In this document: positions 6,283 through 18,746 of the stretch, one piece after another
How the letters are laid out: each line of letters starts with the position of its first letter
Numbering within the stretch: position 1 is the stretch's first letter
Assembly: GCA_019058275.1 (NCBI GenBank)
Contig: JAHLVW010000046.1
Coordinates: 1-23,104, forward strand
Source: Candidatus Heimdallarchaeota archaeon
Lineage (GTDB): Archaea; Asgardarchaeota; Heimdallarchaeia; JABLTI01
Length of the DNA: 23,104 bases
Direction of reading: 5' to 3'
Program-made: the position numbers and the translations under genes
The notes under the pieces: model-generated
The model's input: only the letters and a program-made list of their open reading frames with translations
What the model was told of the DNA's origin: nothing
The model's database searches: none

Positions 6283-6564
6283 TTATCTGTAGGCTTTCTT
6301 TCGGTGAGAGATTCTTATGATAACCACAATTACTTCCTTGATGTAAATTTTATACAGAATACGATAATTCCCCGTTTTAGCTCGATAGGTGTTTTTCTTA
6401 TTGCGCATTCTTATGGCTGGAACTTGGAAAGGAAATTTCAAGGAATGAATAATATCCATAATTTGCTTCTGAATATTTTTTGGAAGCTTCTTTAGTTCTT
6501 TATCAACCACAGGAAGGAGATAAACCTTATACTCTCTTCTCTTGGGATTCTTACTCGACATCAC
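6283..6564 (-). CDS. relE: RelE/ParE-family toxin
   Basis: KELKKLPKNIQKQI, YRAKTGNYRILY and IRISHRKKAY; start overlaps the antitoxin stop. Confidence 0.88.
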   Translation of the reverse strand: MMSSKNPKRREYKVYLLPVVDKELKKLPKNIQKQIMDIIHSLKFPFQVPAIRMRNKKNTYRAKTGNYRILYKIYIKEVIVVIIRISHRKKAYR

Positions 6565-6752
6565 TTCACCAGAACAAGTTTATCAAAAGCCTTTTCCTTG
6601 ATGATTTTATCTGCTTGAATAATTCGTTCTAGTTCTTCTTCTATAAGGTAATCCTCTTCCACAATTAACAAAAGGAGTTGTTCAATTCGGTTTATTTTTT
6701 CCTCTAGTTGATTAATTCTCTCAAGAACAATATTCTCATTCTCTGTTGTCAT
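6561..6752 (-). CDS. Cognate antitoxin of the RelE toxin
   Basis: Small acidic protein directly upstream of relE with a 4-nt overlap. Confidence 0.75.
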   Translation of the reverse strand: MTTENENIVLERINQLEEKINRIEQLLLLIVEEDYLIEEELERIIQADKIIKEKAFDKLVLVK

Positions 6753-6936: not shown

Positions 6937-6991
6937 CACTTACTTCCTCTTTAAGGTTAAGAAGTCCAGTTCGGTAATGACAATTAAGTAC
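6937..6991 (+). repeat. Array boundary repeat, copy 6
   Basis: cacttacttcctctttaaggttaagaagtccagttcggtaatgacaattaagtac. Confidence 0.85.
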
Positions 6992-7039: not shown

Positions 7040-7612
7040 TTAAATTAGAATTATTAAACCAATTGAAGCAAATAAAATTGCTGAGAGTACTAAATTAATT
7101 ATCAACATTATTATTGAACGATTAACCCATTTCATTTTTTGCACAACAGCATTTGAGATATTGTATGTTTGCTTAGCATAATCAGAAAAAATGTCATCTT
7201 CTTCTAAGGATTTCAAATCTTTTATGTAGCTTTCAGCTGAATCATAAGATTCAATATTACGATAATATAATCGGCTTCTATTTTCATTACTATCTTGTTT
7301 CATTTTTCCGAATAGATTCTTTTTTTGACTAGGTATTCTATCTTTATAGATGACGATGGAAAAAATAATGCCAATAAGTGTTGTAGCAACATATAACCCT
7401 ACAAATATTAAAAATAATATTCGGTATTTATTCAACATCCCACTGACTTTACTGACAGTATCTGTTATTAATGCAGTACCCAAACCAAGTGAAAAAACTA
7501 AACTTTGTATAGAAATTGTTATGTTTGCTTTTGAATCAGCTCTAGCTGCTTCATCTAATGAAGTATTATATGCATGGACTACAACAGTTTTTCGCGAAAT
7601 ATCAATAGGCAC
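7040..7612 (-). CDS. Pycsar transmembrane effector-like protein (PycTM/DUF5706)
   Basis: ADSKA motif before TM1, then TM2, LYYRNI, YAKQTYNISNAVVQKMKWVNRSI and a final TM. AGGAGG RBS. Confidence 0.72.
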   Translation of the reverse strand: MPIDISRKTVVVHAYNTSLDEAARADSKANITISIQSLVFSLGLGTALITDTVSKVSGMLNKYRILFLIFVGLYVATTLIGIIFSIVIYKDRIPSQKKNLFGKMKQDSNENRSRLYYRNIESYDSAESYIKDLKSLEEDDIFSDYAKQTYNISNAVVQKMKWVNRSIIMLIINLVLSAILFASIGLIILI

Positions 7613-7731
7613 ATATTTCCCTCCTAAATATTATTAACTTGTTATTAGATAAATAATTTCACCACAAATTTTAAGATAAAAATGCAGAGTCATTCAACAT
7701 TCATGTTTTCTTTTTTAATTAATTCAAAATT

Positions 7732-8835
7732 CTAGCCTGATAATTTGATTTTCATTGAAGAAGCATTCTTGTCAATGACTATTAGTTTGTAATTATATTC
7801 TTTAGGTTTGTATTTGTTAAGGAGTTTCTTGATATTATTAGTAATATTTGTTACATAAATTTCTATCTCTCGATTTTGTTCATTTGCTACTTCTACAATC
7901 CACTTTAGGGGTGGAAATTCAGGATTTCCATGATAACCATTTCCTGATATAATGTATTTATCTGCAAGAATTGTTCTAAAGAAATCGACTGTAACATTTC
8001 TATCACTCCCGTGATGTGGTAATTTTAAAACATCCACTTTAAGTTTCCCTTTTTTATCAAGTAATCTTAACTTTGTTAATCCATCAATGATATGTTTGCC
8101 AAGTCCATCTCCTGTTAAGAGAATACTTTTGTTATCAACTTCTGCAAGTACCATAATGCTACTTAAATTTGGTATGCTATCATCAGCTTTTTTTATTAAG
8201 CTCTTTTCTACATCTCGGTGCATTAATTTTTTTTCATAATCTGTGATCCATTTCTCCCAGTGCCCTTTCAGTTTATCAAGAGTTTTCTTAGTAGGTCCTA
8301 TAATGAATAATTTTAGATTGTCAAACTTAATTGGATTAGAAGGATTTTCTAATGAAATCAAATTTCCTTTGAATTTCTTGTTTATATTTATATCTAGCAA
8401 ATCAGCTAATTGCTTCAATTCTTCACCTTGACTTATTCCTCTGTGAACATTTCTTTCAGGAGTTTTAGCTAATCTTACATCACGTATCTTTATCAGTAAT
8501 TTTTTTATTCGTTTTTCCAATTTATCGTCAATATTGAAAGATTTTCCAAATGAATTATACCATAGTTGATCAAAAGCAATAATTTTCTGTTTAGCATACG
8601 ATTCTACGAATAACTCAGTTAAACCAATAATATGATCATTATCAACATGTGTCGATATTATAAGATCAAGCTTTTCTCCCTTTTGATTTATTTTTTGTAA
8701 TTCATTACGTAAATGATGTTCATATATTGTTTCTGGACCACCATCTATTAAGATATATTTTGGTTTTTTATGAGTACCATATTCCAGAATAAAACAATCA
8801 CCATGTTCTGCTTGTATCATATGGAAGTTAAACAT
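7732..8835 (-). CDS. Metallo-beta-lactamase-fold hydrolase (ComEC/Rec2- or Avs1a-like)
   Basis: AEHGDC, LIDGG, THVDNDHI (HxDxDH), LLTGD, KLPHHGS and HGNP motifs. Confidence 0.88.
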   Translation of the reverse strand: MFNFHMIQAEHGDCFILEYGTHKKPKYILIDGGPETIYEHHLRNELQKINQKGEKLDLIISTHVDNDHIIGLTELFVESYAKQKIIAFDQLWYNSFGKSFNIDDKLEKRIKKLLIKIRDVRLAKTPERNVHRGISQGEELKQLADLLDININKKFKGNLISLENPSNPIKFDNLKLFIIGPTKKTLDKLKGHWEKWITDYEKKLMHRDVEKSLIKKADDSIPNLSSIMVLAEVDNKSILLTGDGLGKHIIDGLTKLRLLDKKGKLKVDVLKLPHHGSDRNVTVDFFRTILADKYIISGNGYHGNPEFPPLKWIVEVANEQNREIEIYVTNITNNIKKLLNKYKPKEYNYKLIVIDKNASSMKIKLSG

Positions 8836-9144
8836 AATACCACATTCAAAGAGTCAGATCTGAGTTTTCATGTTTATATCCTATTATTTTCTAAAAGATT
8901 GTACTGCAAATGTAACATTCAAGGAAGGTTGTTTTATTTTTACACTATTTCCTGATTTAAGTAAATTTAAGTCTGTAATATTTAGAAATAGTTCCCTCCA
9001 AAAAACAATTGATTATATTGATATTTATAATTTTTCCTACATTTAAATTTAGAATTTTCAACTTGAAATAAGGATTTTTTTAGAAGAAAGAATATAAGGG
9101 ATAATTTACATATTCTAATGTAATATTTTGGTGGTGGAGGGAAA

Positions 9145-11815
9145 TTGAATAGAGATATACCACAAGGATTAAGGAATAGAATAATAAAATTAGGAAGAGA
9201 TTGGGCACGAAAGAATAGAAAAGAGCAGCGTTCTGAAGGCAAATTAACTAGATGGGCATATTATCTTAATCTAATTTCTTTATATGATAGAAGAAATATA
9301 AAAATTGCTTTAGCAGAAATTGTTGACGAAAGAAATAAGAGGCTTAAAAAAGGAGACAAGCTTTATGAAAAGGAAAACTATGATAAAGCAATTAGTGCTT
9401 ACTTAAAAATAATAAGCTGGTATGAAATTGATGATCCTTTATATAAAATTGAAGATGAAGGTGCTTTATATAAAATAGGTAAATGCTATGAAAAAAAGGG
9501 TGCCTTAAATAAAGATATTGAAGATTATAGAAAAGCCTTAGAATATTATACCAGAGTTATTGTGGTTAATAATAAATACTTAGATACTTGGATTAGGAAG
9601 GGAGCTATATATCTTAAACTAGAAAAATGGGATGACGCAATTAATTCCTTCATAAAAGCCAAAAAAATTGAATCAAAATGTGATAAAATATTACTCAATT
9701 TAGGCATAGCTTCAATAAAAATAACAAGGATGACTGGAATAAATCCAAAGAATGTTTTAAAGAAATAATTAAAATTAATCATTCTCATAAAAATGCTTGG
9801 ATACAAATTGGACGAACATTTTTTAGATTAAAGCAATTTGATGAATTAATAAAATTATGTAATAAATATATCAATAAAAAAGTTGAACATCAAGCCATCT
9901 ACTATGCTTTAGGATTAGCATATCAAGGAAAAAAGAATTTTGAAGAGGCAATCAGATTTTATGATAAATCATTAGAGTATGATATAGTAAATTTTACGAT
10001 TCTCATCATGAAAAAGGAATTGCCTATGGTTTGAAGGGGGAATATAAGAAAGCAATTAGCAGCATTAAAAAAGCTCTTAATATAGAAGCTGAATCATTAG
10101 AAGCTTTAAATGATTTGGGATGCATTTATCGTAAAAAAGGAGAATTCAATGAAGGTATTAAGCAATTAAGTAAAGCTCTAGAAATCGATCCAGAATACGA
10201 GATTGCTTTTGTAAGCTTAGGAGAGATATATTATGATATGGGAAATTATGAAGAAGCAAAAAAACACTTCTTAAAAGCATTGAGACTAAATATTGAATGG
10301 CCTGAGATATGGAATAACCTAGGAGAATTGCATTATCGAAATAAGAATTGGGAAAAATCAATTGATTGCTTTAAAAACGCCATTCACTATTATGAAAAGG
10401 TACAACGATACGATAATCTATTCTATAAAATGCATGAGAGTATTAGTGATGCGTATATTAATTGTAATAAGTATGAGGAAGCAATGAAGCATATTGAAAA
10501 AATCATTAAAAAAGAGCATAATAGATACGATATTCGAAAGAAATTAGGCAGACTCTATTATGATACAAAAAAGTATAAACAAGCAATTGAACAGCAATTG
10601 GAAGTTATGAGACAAGATGAAACAGATTATATTACTTTAAATGAATTAGGATTGTCTTATTTAAAAGATAATCAAGTGGATACTGCAAAAGATTGTTTTG
10701 AAAAAATTGTAAATGAGATTAAAAAAGACTATCCAAATGCATGGTTCAATTTAGGACTTCTTAATATTGAAAATGGAGAAATTGAAAGAGCTAGAGATTG
10801 TTTTAATAAAACAATTAAACTTAATCCAGATTATAATGAAATGATTAATAAAAAAATAAAAGAAAAATTGGAATCCATTTTAAGAGAAGTTGAAGAAGCT
10901 AAAATTAAAAATAATTTAAAAAAGGCTCAAAAGCTTTCTGAAAAAGCACTAAATTTAGATCCAAAAAATAAACAAGCATTAAATGCATTAAAAAAAATAA
11001 ACAAACAAATAACCAAAAACAATTTAGAGATTTTGATGAAATTAGATGGCAGTGGCCAAAAAATCACTTTGAATGAATTAATGACAATTCTAAGTATTGA
11101 TGAACCTGCTAAATTACGAAAATTCCTGATATTGCATAAAAATAAGGTTAATTACGAAAGAGAAGGGAATGTAATTATTTTTGCTAAACCAGTAAAGAAA
11201 GAAGATGCACTAAGTGAAGAAGAAAAAATACAAATTCTATTTTTAGCTGCAAATCCTGAAGATACTGTTAGACTTAGAATTGATAAAGAGATGCGTGAAG
11301 TTGATCATGCTTTAAAAAAGTCAAAACACTATGAGAAATTTAAAATAAAAGACCTATGGTCGATTCAAATCGACGATCTTCAAGAGAGTTTGTTAGAATA
11401 TTATCCCACAATTGTTCATTTTAGTGGTCATGGCAAAGGTACAAATGAGATTATTCTTGAAAATGAATTTGGTGAAGCTCGAACTGTTACTCCAAAAGCT
11501 TTAGAAAATCTTTTCGCAATGCATAAAGATCATGTACGTTGTGTTGTGCTAAATGCTTGTTTTAGCAAAAAACAAGCTGAAGCAATAGGCAAGCATATTG
11601 ATTGTGTTGTAGGTATGTCTAAGAAAATAGATGATGACGCAGCAATCAACTTTTCAGCAGCATTCTATCAGGCATTAGGTTATGGAAAAAGTGTTGAATT
11701 TGCATTTAAATCAGGATTGACTAGAATCAAATTGAAGGATTTGAATGAAGAAGATGTTCCACAATTAGTTGACAAAAAGAATATCGCAAATGAAATAATT
11801 TTTGTTGTAAAGTAA
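9145..11815 (+). pseudogene. TPR-CHAT caspase-like protease (~890 aa), split by two frameshifts as sequenced
   Basis: TPR repeats continue through 9720-9985 in a third frame (NAWIQIGRTFF, AIYYALGLAYQGKKNFEEAIRFYDKSLEYD). Shifts fall at the A5 run 9717-9721 and at about 9984. The CHAT domain from ~11225 has ILFLAANP, VHFSGHG and VLNAC (His-Cys dyad). Confidence 0.88.
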
Positions 11816-11944: not shown

Positions 11945-12006
11945 ATCTCCACTTCTTCAAGCAATACCTAGATGTCCGGTTTGGGAAGGAAATGCTAAGC
12001 TGGTAA
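11945..12006 (+). repeat. Array boundary repeat, copy 7 (variant spacer)
   Basis: atctccacttcttcaagcaatacctagatgtccggtttgggaaggaaatgctaagctggtaa. Confidence 0.8.
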
Positions 12007-12294: not shown

Positions 12295-13418
12295 ATGAAA
12301 AGAAATAGGATATATGGCATTATTTTTCTATCACTTATTCTTTCAATGGGATTGATAAGCTCATCGAATGTTTCAAGTCGCACATTTCCTTGCAATGGTT
12401 ATGTTAAGGAAGCAGGAACGAGTAATCCTATAAGTGGAGCAAAAGTTGACCTCTATGTGTATGATTTTATAACAGGTTGGGACTATATTGGCAGAAGACA
12501 TACTGATTCCAATGGTTACTATAGTTTCTCAAGTGTACCAATAGGTGCTAGAGAAGTCCATATTTCAAAATCAGGATATCAATCATACGAAGGAGTACAT
12601 CAATCAACCATTTATTTAGAGACATATACATATGATTACATTTTCTTTGGAACAATAAGAAATTTAGTTACTTCACAAGCACTTAGTGGAGCTGTTGCTG
12701 AAATCACATGTGGAACAAAAACAATTTCTGATACAACTGATAATTCAGGTTACTATTGTATCGTATTTTCCTATAGTACCAGTGGAGTTCGAACGTTTAA
12801 CATGGAAGTAAGTAAAACAGGTTATAGTACTTATACAGATACAATAATCAGAAATTATGGTTATGAACACCGAAACATCAATTTGAAAGAAATAAGGACT
12901 TGGTTGTATATTGAAGATTATGGTGAAGAAGCTAAGTATCTCAGATTTGAAATTGAGGAATATGAACTTTCTACACAATATAAACTAGTATTCGATGTGA
13001 CAATAGAGTTTTATTACTATCTAAATCCTGGATTCACTATTCAAGTTCAAAGATATTGTCCAATTGGTAATTTATGGATTAGAAATTGGATTACTGATGA
13101 TGATGCTACTGATACTGAATTACCTGGCGGATTGCATCAAGTCTATGCTCATGTTGTTGAAGAATTCTACTACGATAAAGCTACTTATTACTCAGATTGG
13201 TGTGGTGTATATGGAGGATTAGTTAAACCATCAACTTGTTCCCGTTTTATGGAATGGAACTTGTTTTTCAAATAGATGATCCTACCTATGGAACACCATT
13301 TGAATGGGAAGATAATTGGTTTGGTAGTTATCCATACGGATTCTTTGGAACACTTGATGAAGGGCATCCATATCTTACAGTTAGTTATCCTTCAGGTGCT
13401 TGGTATAGTAGGGCATAA
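12295..13418 (+). CDS. Secreted protein with two carboxypeptidase-regulatory-like (prealbumin-fold) domains; probable frameshift near the 3' end
   Basis: Signal peptide. Duplicated pattern PISGAKV/TDSNGYY/SKSGY and ALSGAVA/TDNSGYY/SKTGY. The -1 frame 13227-13418 has the same Y/G/W-rich composition and ends at an oligo-T terminator. Confidence 0.72.
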
Positions 13419-13670: not shown

Positions 13671-13904
13671 ATGGATGTAAGTTTGAAAAAGGAAGTTGCT
13701 GAAGAATTAATTACCTACAAACTAAGACGTATTCAAGCAATAATAGAAGATATCCTTTCGAGATGGAAAGAAAAAACAATTGAAGAATTCTTAGAAAAAG
13801 CAAAAGATGGGACCTTACAAGAAGCGGAAAATGATGCAATAGAATTAAAACAATTGGTTAATGAAGAGGAAAAACTTCAGAATTTACTAAAGAAACTTGG
13901 GTAG
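13671..13904 (+). CDS. Putative antitoxin (TumA-like)
   Basis: Acidic helical protein (TIEEFLEKAKDGTLQEAENDAIEL) ending 2 nt upstream of a DUF6516-like gene. Confidence 0.6.
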   Translation: MDVSLKKEVAEELITYKLRRIQAIIEDILSRWKEKTIEEFLEKAKDGTLQEAENDAIELKQLVNEEEKLQNLLKKLG

Positions 13905-13906
13905 TT

Positions 13907-14278
13907 TTGGGGGAGAACAGAATTTTAGCTCGAGAAAAGCTTCTATATGCCCGAGAATTCCTAGTTAATAAATTTTTATCAGAGATTTATGAAATCATTT
14001 TAGATGATGATCGTCCAATTCTTACTATAAAATTCAGAAAAGGATTCATACTTCATATACGCTACAATGATTTTGGTGAATATTCTTACCAGATTTTATT
14101 CTCTCAGAAAAAATTCGATAGAGTGAGATATGATAATTATGATGACAAATGGGACGTTGCATCCAAACCACATCATTTACACCCTCGAAATAAACAAGAT
14201 GCAATTACCAGTCCAATGTTAGGAAAACCTGAAAAAGATATCCCACTTTTAATTGAAACAATAGAAAAATATCTGTAG
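13907..14278 (+). CDS. DUF6516/TumE-family putative toxin
   Basis: YSYQ, RYDN and PHHLH signature. Confidence 0.72.
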   Translation: MGENRILAREKLLYAREFLVNKFLSEIYEIILDDDRPILTIKFRKGFILHIRYNDFGEYSYQILFSQKKFDRVRYDNYDDKWDVASKPHHLHPRNKQDAITSPMLGKPEKDIPLLIETIEKYL

Positions 14279-18236: not shown

Positions 18237-18746
18237 TTATTTTTTAGATTCTAATTCCTTAAGAATTGTTTCATAAAGCAATGCAGTCATTCGAAAATTA
18301 GTTTTATTAATTGCTGATAAAATGACGAGAACTTCATTTCTAGAGAGTTTTCCTGTGTGCTTTAGAGAAACTAATAATCCAAGTAAACCAGTAAGATTAA
18401 ATCCTTCAGCTCTCGCAACAGATCGAGCGACTAAATCATCAAACACAATAACATCTTTCTTTTTCTTTGCTGCTAGCAAAATGGAAATTTCCCCATCATG
18501 TAAACCGAGAGTATGGTAGAGCTGATGAGATGAATGAGAAGTTATTGTAATGGATTGCACTTGTATTTTCCCATTAGAAATAAGTTCTTCAACAGCTTTC
18601 TTAATTGGAGATGGTTTCAAAGTGACTTCTTTGAGAACAGCAGAGGTAATTGTGAAATTAGGTATCAAATCACAAAATAATTGCAAATAGCCAATCTCAA
18701 CTAATACGATAAGGCTTGACGAATCGAAGAGAAATCGGTTTGTCAT
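18237..18746 (-). CDS. PIN-domain toxin, DUF3368-like
   Basis: FDSSSLI, LHDGEISIL, FDDLVARSVA and TGLLGLL. Confidence 0.85.
   Translation of the reverse strand: MTNRFLFDSSSLIVLVEIGYLQLFCDLIPNFTITSAVLKEVTLKPSPIKKAVEELISNGKIQVQSITITSHSSHQLYHTLGLHDGEISILLAAKKKKDVIVFDDLVARSVARAEGFNLTGLLGLLVSLKHTGKLSRNEVLVILSAINKTNFRMTALLYETILKELESKK

Follow-up and report, generated by a model that had tools for sequence, protein, structure and literature searches.

The element described here is a repeat-bounded cassette of three genes in an Asgard archaeon, Candidatus Heimdallarchaeota archaeon (assembly GCA_019058275.1), and the window, to which all coordinates refer, is the entire 23.1-kb contig JAHLVW010000046.1 (23,104 nucleotides) of a 4.12-Mb metagenome-assembled genome (MAG; 92.8% complete, 6.8% contaminated, ~30% GC). 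A gene for a TPR-CHAT protein, which combines a TPR array with a caspase-fold CHAT protease domain, is transcribed divergently from a gene for a metallo-β-lactamase (MBL)-fold hydrolase, and a gene for a PycTM-family membrane protein follows the MBL gene on the same strand (Table 1). The original prediction for this locus had listed the three genes, their bounding repeats and frameshifts, all of which are present as described, and had regarded the trio as a candidate new defense system in which the CHAT protease cleaves the MBL or the membrane protein. Our main subject is the divergent protease-MBL pair and its relationship to protease-gated pro-nucleases; the PycTM gene and the surrounding repeat array are considered after it.

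Gene content of the cassette and state of the protease gene

The bounding repeats belong to a family that is found on the + strand, in the gaps between gene groups, and is built on a 24-nt dyad core (ACTTCTTCTTTAAGGnnnAGAAGT) whose flanks are conserved. The core pattern is matched 11 times in the window, where chance would give 2.2, and 9 of the 11 are genuine repeat copies, all on the + strand. Since one copy lies on either side of the module, its description as repeat-bounded holds. Among the module open reading frames (ORFs) there is no nucleotide cyclase, gasdermin, STAND ATPase or Cas gene, again in agreement with what had been predicted.

The TPR-CHAT gene retains both catalytic motifs, HFSGHG and LNAC, in the intact state that had been claimed for them, and both of its frameshifts fall upstream of the CHAT domain. 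Two further NCBI MAGs and two Logan assemblies contain the same locus at 99.6-99.7% identity, each with an uninterrupted 890-aa TPR-CHAT ORF, and the window's 4-bp deletion and 2-bp insertion are seen relative to all four; a catalytically competent protease is therefore predicted for the four sister assemblies and not for the window. An alternative genetic code was rejected as the cause of the split ORF because each break is an insertion or deletion when compared with the intact alleles. General assembly noise was likewise rejected, as only four indels separate the window from one sister locus (L002) over 14.7 kb of alignment: the two in the TPR-CHAT gene, which are the only frame-breaking ones in coding sequence, an in-frame 3-bp indel in a ParE gene (window 6516) and a 1-bp intergenic one. 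With so few other indels, the protease gene is specifically disrupted in this strain or in its consensus. The MBL and PycTM genes are intact, and a window-specific change in the MBL gene at 8011 is synonymous (decoded by hand). The module is probably dead or decaying in this genome: the two frameshifting indels inactivate the protease gene, so that the MBL should stay latent, and the window copy would represent a natural protease knock-out of an allele that persists intact in sister strains.

The intact 890-aa protein has a basic N-terminus, ~14 TPRs, a ~70-aa linker and a C-terminal CHAT domain of ~200 aa, and Pfam finds only TPR and CHAT domains in it. The CHAT domain is ~50% identical to members of a very large family, and its catalytic His763 and Cys806 are invariant in 49 homologs. 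Its structural model (pLDDT 86.8) is nearest in fold to the SAVED-CHAT protease 8tl0 (TMq 0.78), followed by caspases and MALT1 (TM ~0.55). Members of this CHAT subfamily are fused to many partners, among them TIR, SIR2, kinases, STAND NTPases, propellers and TPR. At three loci (L137:1111-10063, L138 and L139), several proteins with the same short CHAT domain lie beside nSTAND1-WD40 NTPases, and this short domain may be a common building block of STAND-type conflict systems, as an adaptor or as a protease.

Table 1. Features of the cassette, in window coordinates
Feature	Position	Strand	Remarks
Left bounding repeat	6942-6965	+	Good copy, core ACTTCC-N12-AGAAGT
PycTM-family membrane protein, 190 aa, three predicted transmembrane segments	7040-7612	-	Intact orphan; repeat starts 75 bp past the stop
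ComEC-like MBL-fold hydrolase, 367 aa	7732-8835	-	Predicted protease-gated pro-nuclease; THVDNDH 8632-8652, PHHGSD 8002-8019
Second MBL insertion, residues 205-210, MHRDVE	8206-8223	-	Arg207, candidate second cleavage site
End of first MBL insertion, residues 131-137, HRGISQG	8425-8445	-	Arg132, predicted P1 of first cleavage, after disordered loop 124-131
Intergenic region between divergent MBL and TPR-CHAT genes	8836-9144	.	Promoters presumed
TPR-CHAT gene	9145-11815	+	Disrupted; readable only across three frames
Site of 4-bp deletion	~9709-9712	+	CTTA or ACTT, depending on alignment; only in window assembly
Site of 2-bp insertion	~9982-9986	+	AT or TA; only in window assembly
CHAT (caspase-fold) domain, short	11234-11812	+	His motif HFSGHG 11417-11434 (His763), Cys motif LNAC 11549-11566 (Cys806); numbering of the intact protein
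Right bounding repeat	~11951-11975	+	Degenerate but alignable; altered core, 3' flank TCCGGTTTGGGAAGGAAATGCT fits the repeat family

The MBL protein and its protease partners

The MBL protein belongs to a large family (807 matches, typically at 43-49% identity) that PADLOC and NCBIfam already model as LmuA, Avs1a and RT-associated MBL. It matches the PADLOC model for LmuA over its full length (1.5e-66) and those for RT-associated MBL and Avs1a at 4e-47 and 7.5e-44, and its residues 6-202 match the NCBIfam Avs1a model at 1.9e-57. The motifs H63-x-D65-x-D67-H68, D243 and H274-H275-G-S, which are of ComEC type, are invariant in 25 homologs. A profile search of the PDB matched ComEC MBL domains only, with no canu, HamM or Avs-MBL structure among the matches, and the AlphaFold2 model (pLDDT 88.4, pTM 0.90) gave Pce and the ComEC MBL domain 9ic4 as its best Foldseek hits. 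Relative to a minimal MBL, the modelled protein carries two insertions, the first consisting of helices 104-122 and 135-146 flanking a disordered loop (124-131) and the second of helices 183-204 and 211-219; in the model and in the alignment, both sit where the architecture of the gated form expects them.

These features bear on an alternative raised in the original prediction, in which the MBL, in the manner of Apyc1, produces or breaks down a cyclic nucleotide that signals to an orphan PycTM. The two enzymes do share the MBL fold, Apyc1 appears among the Foldseek matches to the model (rank seven, TMq 0.39), and some homologs have faint precomputed matches to PF23023. However, MBL hydrolases are not known to synthesize nucleotides, the best matches in both sequence and fold are ComEC nuclease domains and Pce, no PycTM gene accompanies the MBL at the 86 other loci searched, and the protein, with its 367 aa and the pair of insertions characteristic of the gated form, departs from the compact ~245 aa of Apyc1. 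Additionally, the MBLs to which it is homologous over its full length (Avs1a, LmuA and the RT-associated MBLs) are protease-gated DNases (Evans et al. 2025, PMC12642450). By sequence and predicted fold, the MBL is a homolog of the ComEC-type gated nucleases rather than an Apyc1-like enzyme, and a part in nucleotide signaling is very improbable.

Linkage to proteases was examined at 80 bacterial MBL loci from many phyla, with S8 neighbors called by our own hidden Markov model, and in 400 genomes of the window's Asgard phylum. In the bacterial set, an S8 subtilase (~620-810 aa) lies directly upstream of the MBL gene and co-directional with it at 59 of the 80 loci, and an S8 protease is found within three genes of the MBL at most of them; Pfam confirmed the S8 assignment for 50 of the 55 upstream neighbors submitted. 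Other upstream neighbors included one trypsin domain and one EAD1 domain, and the downstream neighbors scanned included two CHAT proteins, one caspase C14, one clostripain C11, two further S8 proteases, four patatins and one Tle1 lipase. Only five of the 400 Asgard genomes, the window's included, carry the MBL, and a protease adjoins it in all five: the TPR-CHAT protein in the window genome, a CHAT protease in a second species of the same genus (G081), a 750-aa S8 protease in G354, a divergent C14 protease in G366, and a C14 protease plus an unknown 441-aa protein in G241. The arrangement in G081 repeats the divergent CHAT-MBL layout of the window at an MBL identity of 49%.

In a FastTree phylogeny of the MBLs, which did not include CanC, the window protein pairs with the G081 copy (support 98) and the two together join a pair of Asgard C14-linked copies more weakly (support 85). 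These four copies fall within a clade of 34, itself with full support, where MBLs linked to S8, CHAT and C14 proteases are intermingled; the three kinds of partner have thus been swapped within a single MBL clade.

Residues in the MBL insertions covary with the type of partner. At the alignment column of Arg132, Arg is present in six of the seven MBLs linked to caspase-like proteases only (the seventh has a gap), in two of the six linked to both kinds of protease, and in none of the 59 linked to S8 proteases only, which mostly have Ala. Arg recurs in the second insertion of caspase-linked copies (H-R207-D in the window; S-R-D and V-R-D in two bacterial copies), at a place where the S8-linked copies have G-D-P. 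Many clan CD proteases cleave after Arg. Because Arg tracks the caspase-type partners and is a residue after which such proteases often cut, we propose Arg132 and Arg207 as the P1 residues of the putative CHAT cuts, a pattern that could help to predict cleavage sites and partner specificity across the family. At two bacterial loci (L009:4530-10073 and L012:1192-6518), the MBL has an S8 protease upstream and, in addition, a ~650-aa CHAT protein downstream; in the first-insertion column, the former has Arg and the latter Leu.

A further explanation treats all three genes as independent cargo brought together by chance in one cassette, with the TPR-CHAT protein acting in some other CHAT/STAND-type conflict network and the MBL having no local protease. 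Such an explanation would accommodate the mixed cargo of the array's other cassettes, the divergent orientation of the two genes, which are not co-transcribed, and the occurrence of the nearest CHAT relatives in MBL-free multi-CHAT/STAND clusters. It does not account for the protease found beside the MBL in each of the five Asgard genomes and within three genes at most bacterial loci, for the recurrence of the divergent layout in a second species at 49% MBL identity, or for the Arg in the MBL insertions that follows caspase-type partners, and we regard it as improbable.

Relation to known protease-gated nucleases and proposed mechanism

Tuck et al. (Science 2025, PMC12799240) described such MBLs as gated pro-nucleases that are unlocked by a partner protease in Hachiman and AVAST, and defined the canu (caspase-nuclease) loci, which contain TPR and Ig-like domains, protect against T4, and have Klebsiella aerogenes CanABC as their prototype. 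Evans et al. (bioRxiv 2025, PMC12642450) reported that the partner protease cleaves the MBL at two loops to yield a Zn-dependent double-stranded DNA nuclease, and that three MBL clades are tied to trypsin-like, caspase-like and S8 proteases. Trypsin-MBL modules are also covered in a third preprint (bioRxiv 10.1101/2025.09.03.673762), and archaeal examples are absent from the main text of all three papers. The TPR-CHAT and MBL pair belongs to these modules published in November 2025 (canu, PMC12799240; the MBL-protease clades, PMC12642450), of which it is an archaeal TPR-CHAT variant, and the earlier view of the locus as an unnamed new system is accordingly abandoned.

The earlier proposal of MBL cleavage by the CHAT protease fares better. 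Given the near-universal protease linkage, the Arg covariation and the two 2025 papers, it is well supported by comparison and by the recent literature, whereas its companion idea, cleavage of the PycTM protein, is unsupported. We consider it likely, from sequence, structural models and the published analogs, that the functional unit is a two-gene divergent abortive-infection module of the protease-gated pro-nuclease kind. In the mechanism we propose, the MBL would be a metal-dependent, ComEC-like DNase that is predicted to be kept inactive by its insertions at residues ~100-146 and ~183-219. The TPR array of the 890-aa partner would detect an infection cue, upon which the CHAT domain (His763/Cys806) would clip both insertions, probably after Arg132 and Arg207, and the freed nuclease would degrade DNA and stop the infected cell. 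Such a module would carry the principle of the protease-gated pro-nuclease, which so far has been studied in bacteria, into the Asgard archaea, the prokaryotes most closely related to eukaryotes, and DNase activation by a caspase-like protease in this group would echo caspase-activated DNA fragmentation.

The pair shares with canu a caspase-fold cysteine protease beside a ComEC-like MBL, in the window a predicted pro-nuclease, that carries two inserted segments, the presence of TPR domains at the locus, and a defense-island or mobile setting. However, the window's protease has a ~200-aa CHAT domain C-terminal to ~14 TPRs where canu has a MALT1-like paracaspase with an Ig-like domain, its genes are divergent where the canu nuclease lies downstream of the protease, no third conserved gene resembling CanB was found, the candidate cleavage sites are Arg in place of the conserved Gly of CanC, and the host is an Asgard archaeon. 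With the modules of Evans et al. (PMC12642450) and of the trypsin-MBL study, the pair has in common the MBL family, the dual-loop architecture and the adjacency of a protease, but those studies characterize trypsin-fused sensors (Avs2, Avs4, Hachiman), whereas the window's MBL clade mixes S8, CHAT and C14 partners. SAVED-CHAT (8tl0) of the type III CRISPR protease cascade and the type III-E Craspase resemble the window's protease in their CHAT caspase fold and His-Cys dyad, and Csx29 also combines TPR with CHAT; the window differs from them in having no SAVED, Cas7-11, Csx30/Csx31 or PCaspase substrate genes, and its predicted substrate is the MBL nuclease.

Membership in several named systems was considered and rejected. 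Avs1 was ruled out since the NCBIfam match, at 194.8 bits, is below the 420-bit equivalog cut-off and no STAND NTPase was found in the module. In the case of Lamassu, the MBL is matched best by the PADLOC LmuA model, but the neighboring ORFs match no Lamassu model (SMC-like LmuB or LmuC). Type III-E Craspase and gasdermin systems were excluded by the lack of Cas7-11, Csx30 or gasdermin matches among the module ORFs. A strict CanABC assignment was excluded by the SAVED-CHAT protease as nearest fold, by the failure of Pfam to find an Ig-like domain and by the missing CanB. Finally, 6A-MBL membership was considered and also rejected.

Several observations weigh against a dedicated two-gene unit of this kind. 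The MBL and CHAT genes are divergent and do not form one operon as in CanABC, and the covariation of Arg with partner type comes from only two or three independent lineages. Moreover, it is a conserved Gly, and not Arg, that has been noted in the gates of the published canu loci (PMC12799240). The CHAT subfamily is promiscuous, and the closest relatives of the window's domain outside the species occur in clusters of multiple CHAT proteins and nSTAND1-WD40 proteins that are free of MBLs, so that the protease is not specialized for the MBL by ancestry; the CHAT-MBL pairing here looks like a local recruitment. Lastly, the PycTM gene shares both cassette and strand with the MBL gene, which could mean co-regulation.

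The PycTM gene and the surrounding array

The original prediction had described the gene at 7040..7612 as PycTM-like, and this identification stands: its product exceeds the Pfam cut-off for PF18967 (32 bits vs 27.2), matches PADLOC PycTM models with an E-value of 2.8e-19, and also matches models of CBASS 2TM effectors. The gene lies 119 bp downstream of the MBL gene and has its own ribosome-binding-like motif, GGTGG. As in Pycsar, the 190-aa protein is a full-length member of the family that aligns end to end with Asgard PycTMs of PycTM-PycC operons, the best match coming from the same genus (31% identity, E 1e-34), but a cyclase is missing, and the repeat that bounds the cassette occupies the position of PycC in relatives. 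A word-index homolog search with the protein returned only itself; an exhaustive HMMER search returned 69 relatives, the nearest at 35-38% identity, and of the contexts that could be retrieved for them one includes a gene that resembles PycC (E 8.5e-101 against our own cyclase profile) and one has PycTM alone.

PF18967 occurs in 21 of the 400 genomes of the phylum, and 18 loci were inspected. At 11 of the 18, a PycC-like class III cyclase (~235-250 aa) adjoins PycTM, mostly immediately downstream, and at three loci of the window's genus two DUF998-like membrane proteins take the place of the cyclase. In the window genome (92.8% complete), no match was found to PF00211 or to an Asgard PycC-like profile that gave 2.7e-97 in a positive-control genome, and a six-frame search of the PycTM locus detected no cyclase remnant. 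The boundary repeat lies exactly where relatives carry the cyclase, which fits an orphaned effector and is also compatible with recruitment as a second effector. PycTM is a true membrane effector of the Pycsar type whose cyclase was lost or was never there, and it most likely stands outside the protease-nuclease circuit as a co-traveller in the cassette; it could act as a second effector, but such a role is unsupported.

Such a second-effector role would make the cassette a three-gene system, in which the TPR-CHAT protein licenses the MBL nuclease and also a protease-gated PycTM whose part is akin to that of the patatin lipases in bacterial CHAT-MBL cassettes. The PycTM gene is intact, co-directional with the MBL gene and enclosed by the same repeats, its product has an 8-residue Lys-rich insertion in a cytosolic loop relative to cyclase-paired relatives, and additional membrane-attacking effectors (the four patatins and one Tle1 lipase) do occur at some bacterial MBL loci. 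Furthermore, no cyclase was found in the window genome, and two same-genus PycTM genomes likewise have no cyclase-profile match, suggesting that the family can work, or at least persist, without PycC. Set against these points, the trio fails to recur elsewhere, an outcome that the original prediction had itself named as refuting. When 86 other MBL loci were searched in six frames over 7 kb (or to the reach of the contig), none had a PycTM-family gene, and the 18 other PycTM loci of the phylum were found to contain neither the MBL nor the CHAT domain; the three genes thus occur together only in near-identical strains of one species-level lineage. At the same-genus CHAT-MBL locus the downstream gene is a different one, with the PycTM of that genome on another contig, and the cyclase-less PycTM copies elsewhere in the genus have no adjacent protease. 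We consider the three-gene system doubtful. Its full form, in which one TPR-CHAT sensor-protease would control two death effectors, the gated MBL nuclease and a PycTM pore licensed by proteolysis and uncoupled from cyclic nucleotides, is unlikely; if true, it would be the first protease-gated 2TM effector of the PycTM family and the first such circuit in archaea. The orphan PycTM offers a test case for the rewiring of such membrane effectors.

The PycTM survey yielded two further observations. At L124:5311-8845, L125:5258-8806 and L126:724-4280 (genomes G081, G084 and G087), PycTM belongs to a conserved, cyclase-less neighborhood of four genes that also comprises two paralogous DUF998-like membrane proteins of 231 aa and a divergent ~440-aa protein with polyketide-dehydratase (hot-dog) domains. 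The Asgard Pycsar operons (L119, L121-L123, L128-L130 and L133-L136) mostly have PycTM followed by the cyclase, and PF00211 recognizes only 5 of the 11 Asgard cyclases, so that standard annotation would miss many of them.

In the window at large, repeat units of ~70 nt form an array with copies at 136, 2083, 2930, 6942, ~11951, 15083, 17189, 20369, 21081 and 22320, all on the same strand, which partition toxin-antitoxin and defense gene groups in a manner resembling an integron cassette array. The sister strains L002 and L003 have additional or differing repeat copies, and the family was not found around the sister-species loci that were fetched. Genes of toxin-antitoxin type around the module, namely ParE (a toxin, with a small partner upstream of it), TumE and a gene with a TPR-GreAB-C-PIN-type PIN domain (6283-6752, 13671-14278 and 18237-18746), are consistent with a defense/toxin-antitoxin island. 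In sister strains, ~9 kb from PycTM and past the left end of the window, there is a small MBL-fold gene with a weak match to the Anti-Pycsar Apyc1 Pfam family (L003:17335-17742; L002:19222-19482, where it is truncated). In L003 and L005, a strain-level 4-bp difference at window 12353-12356 leaves the gene with the CarboxypepD_reg domain only 272 aa long.

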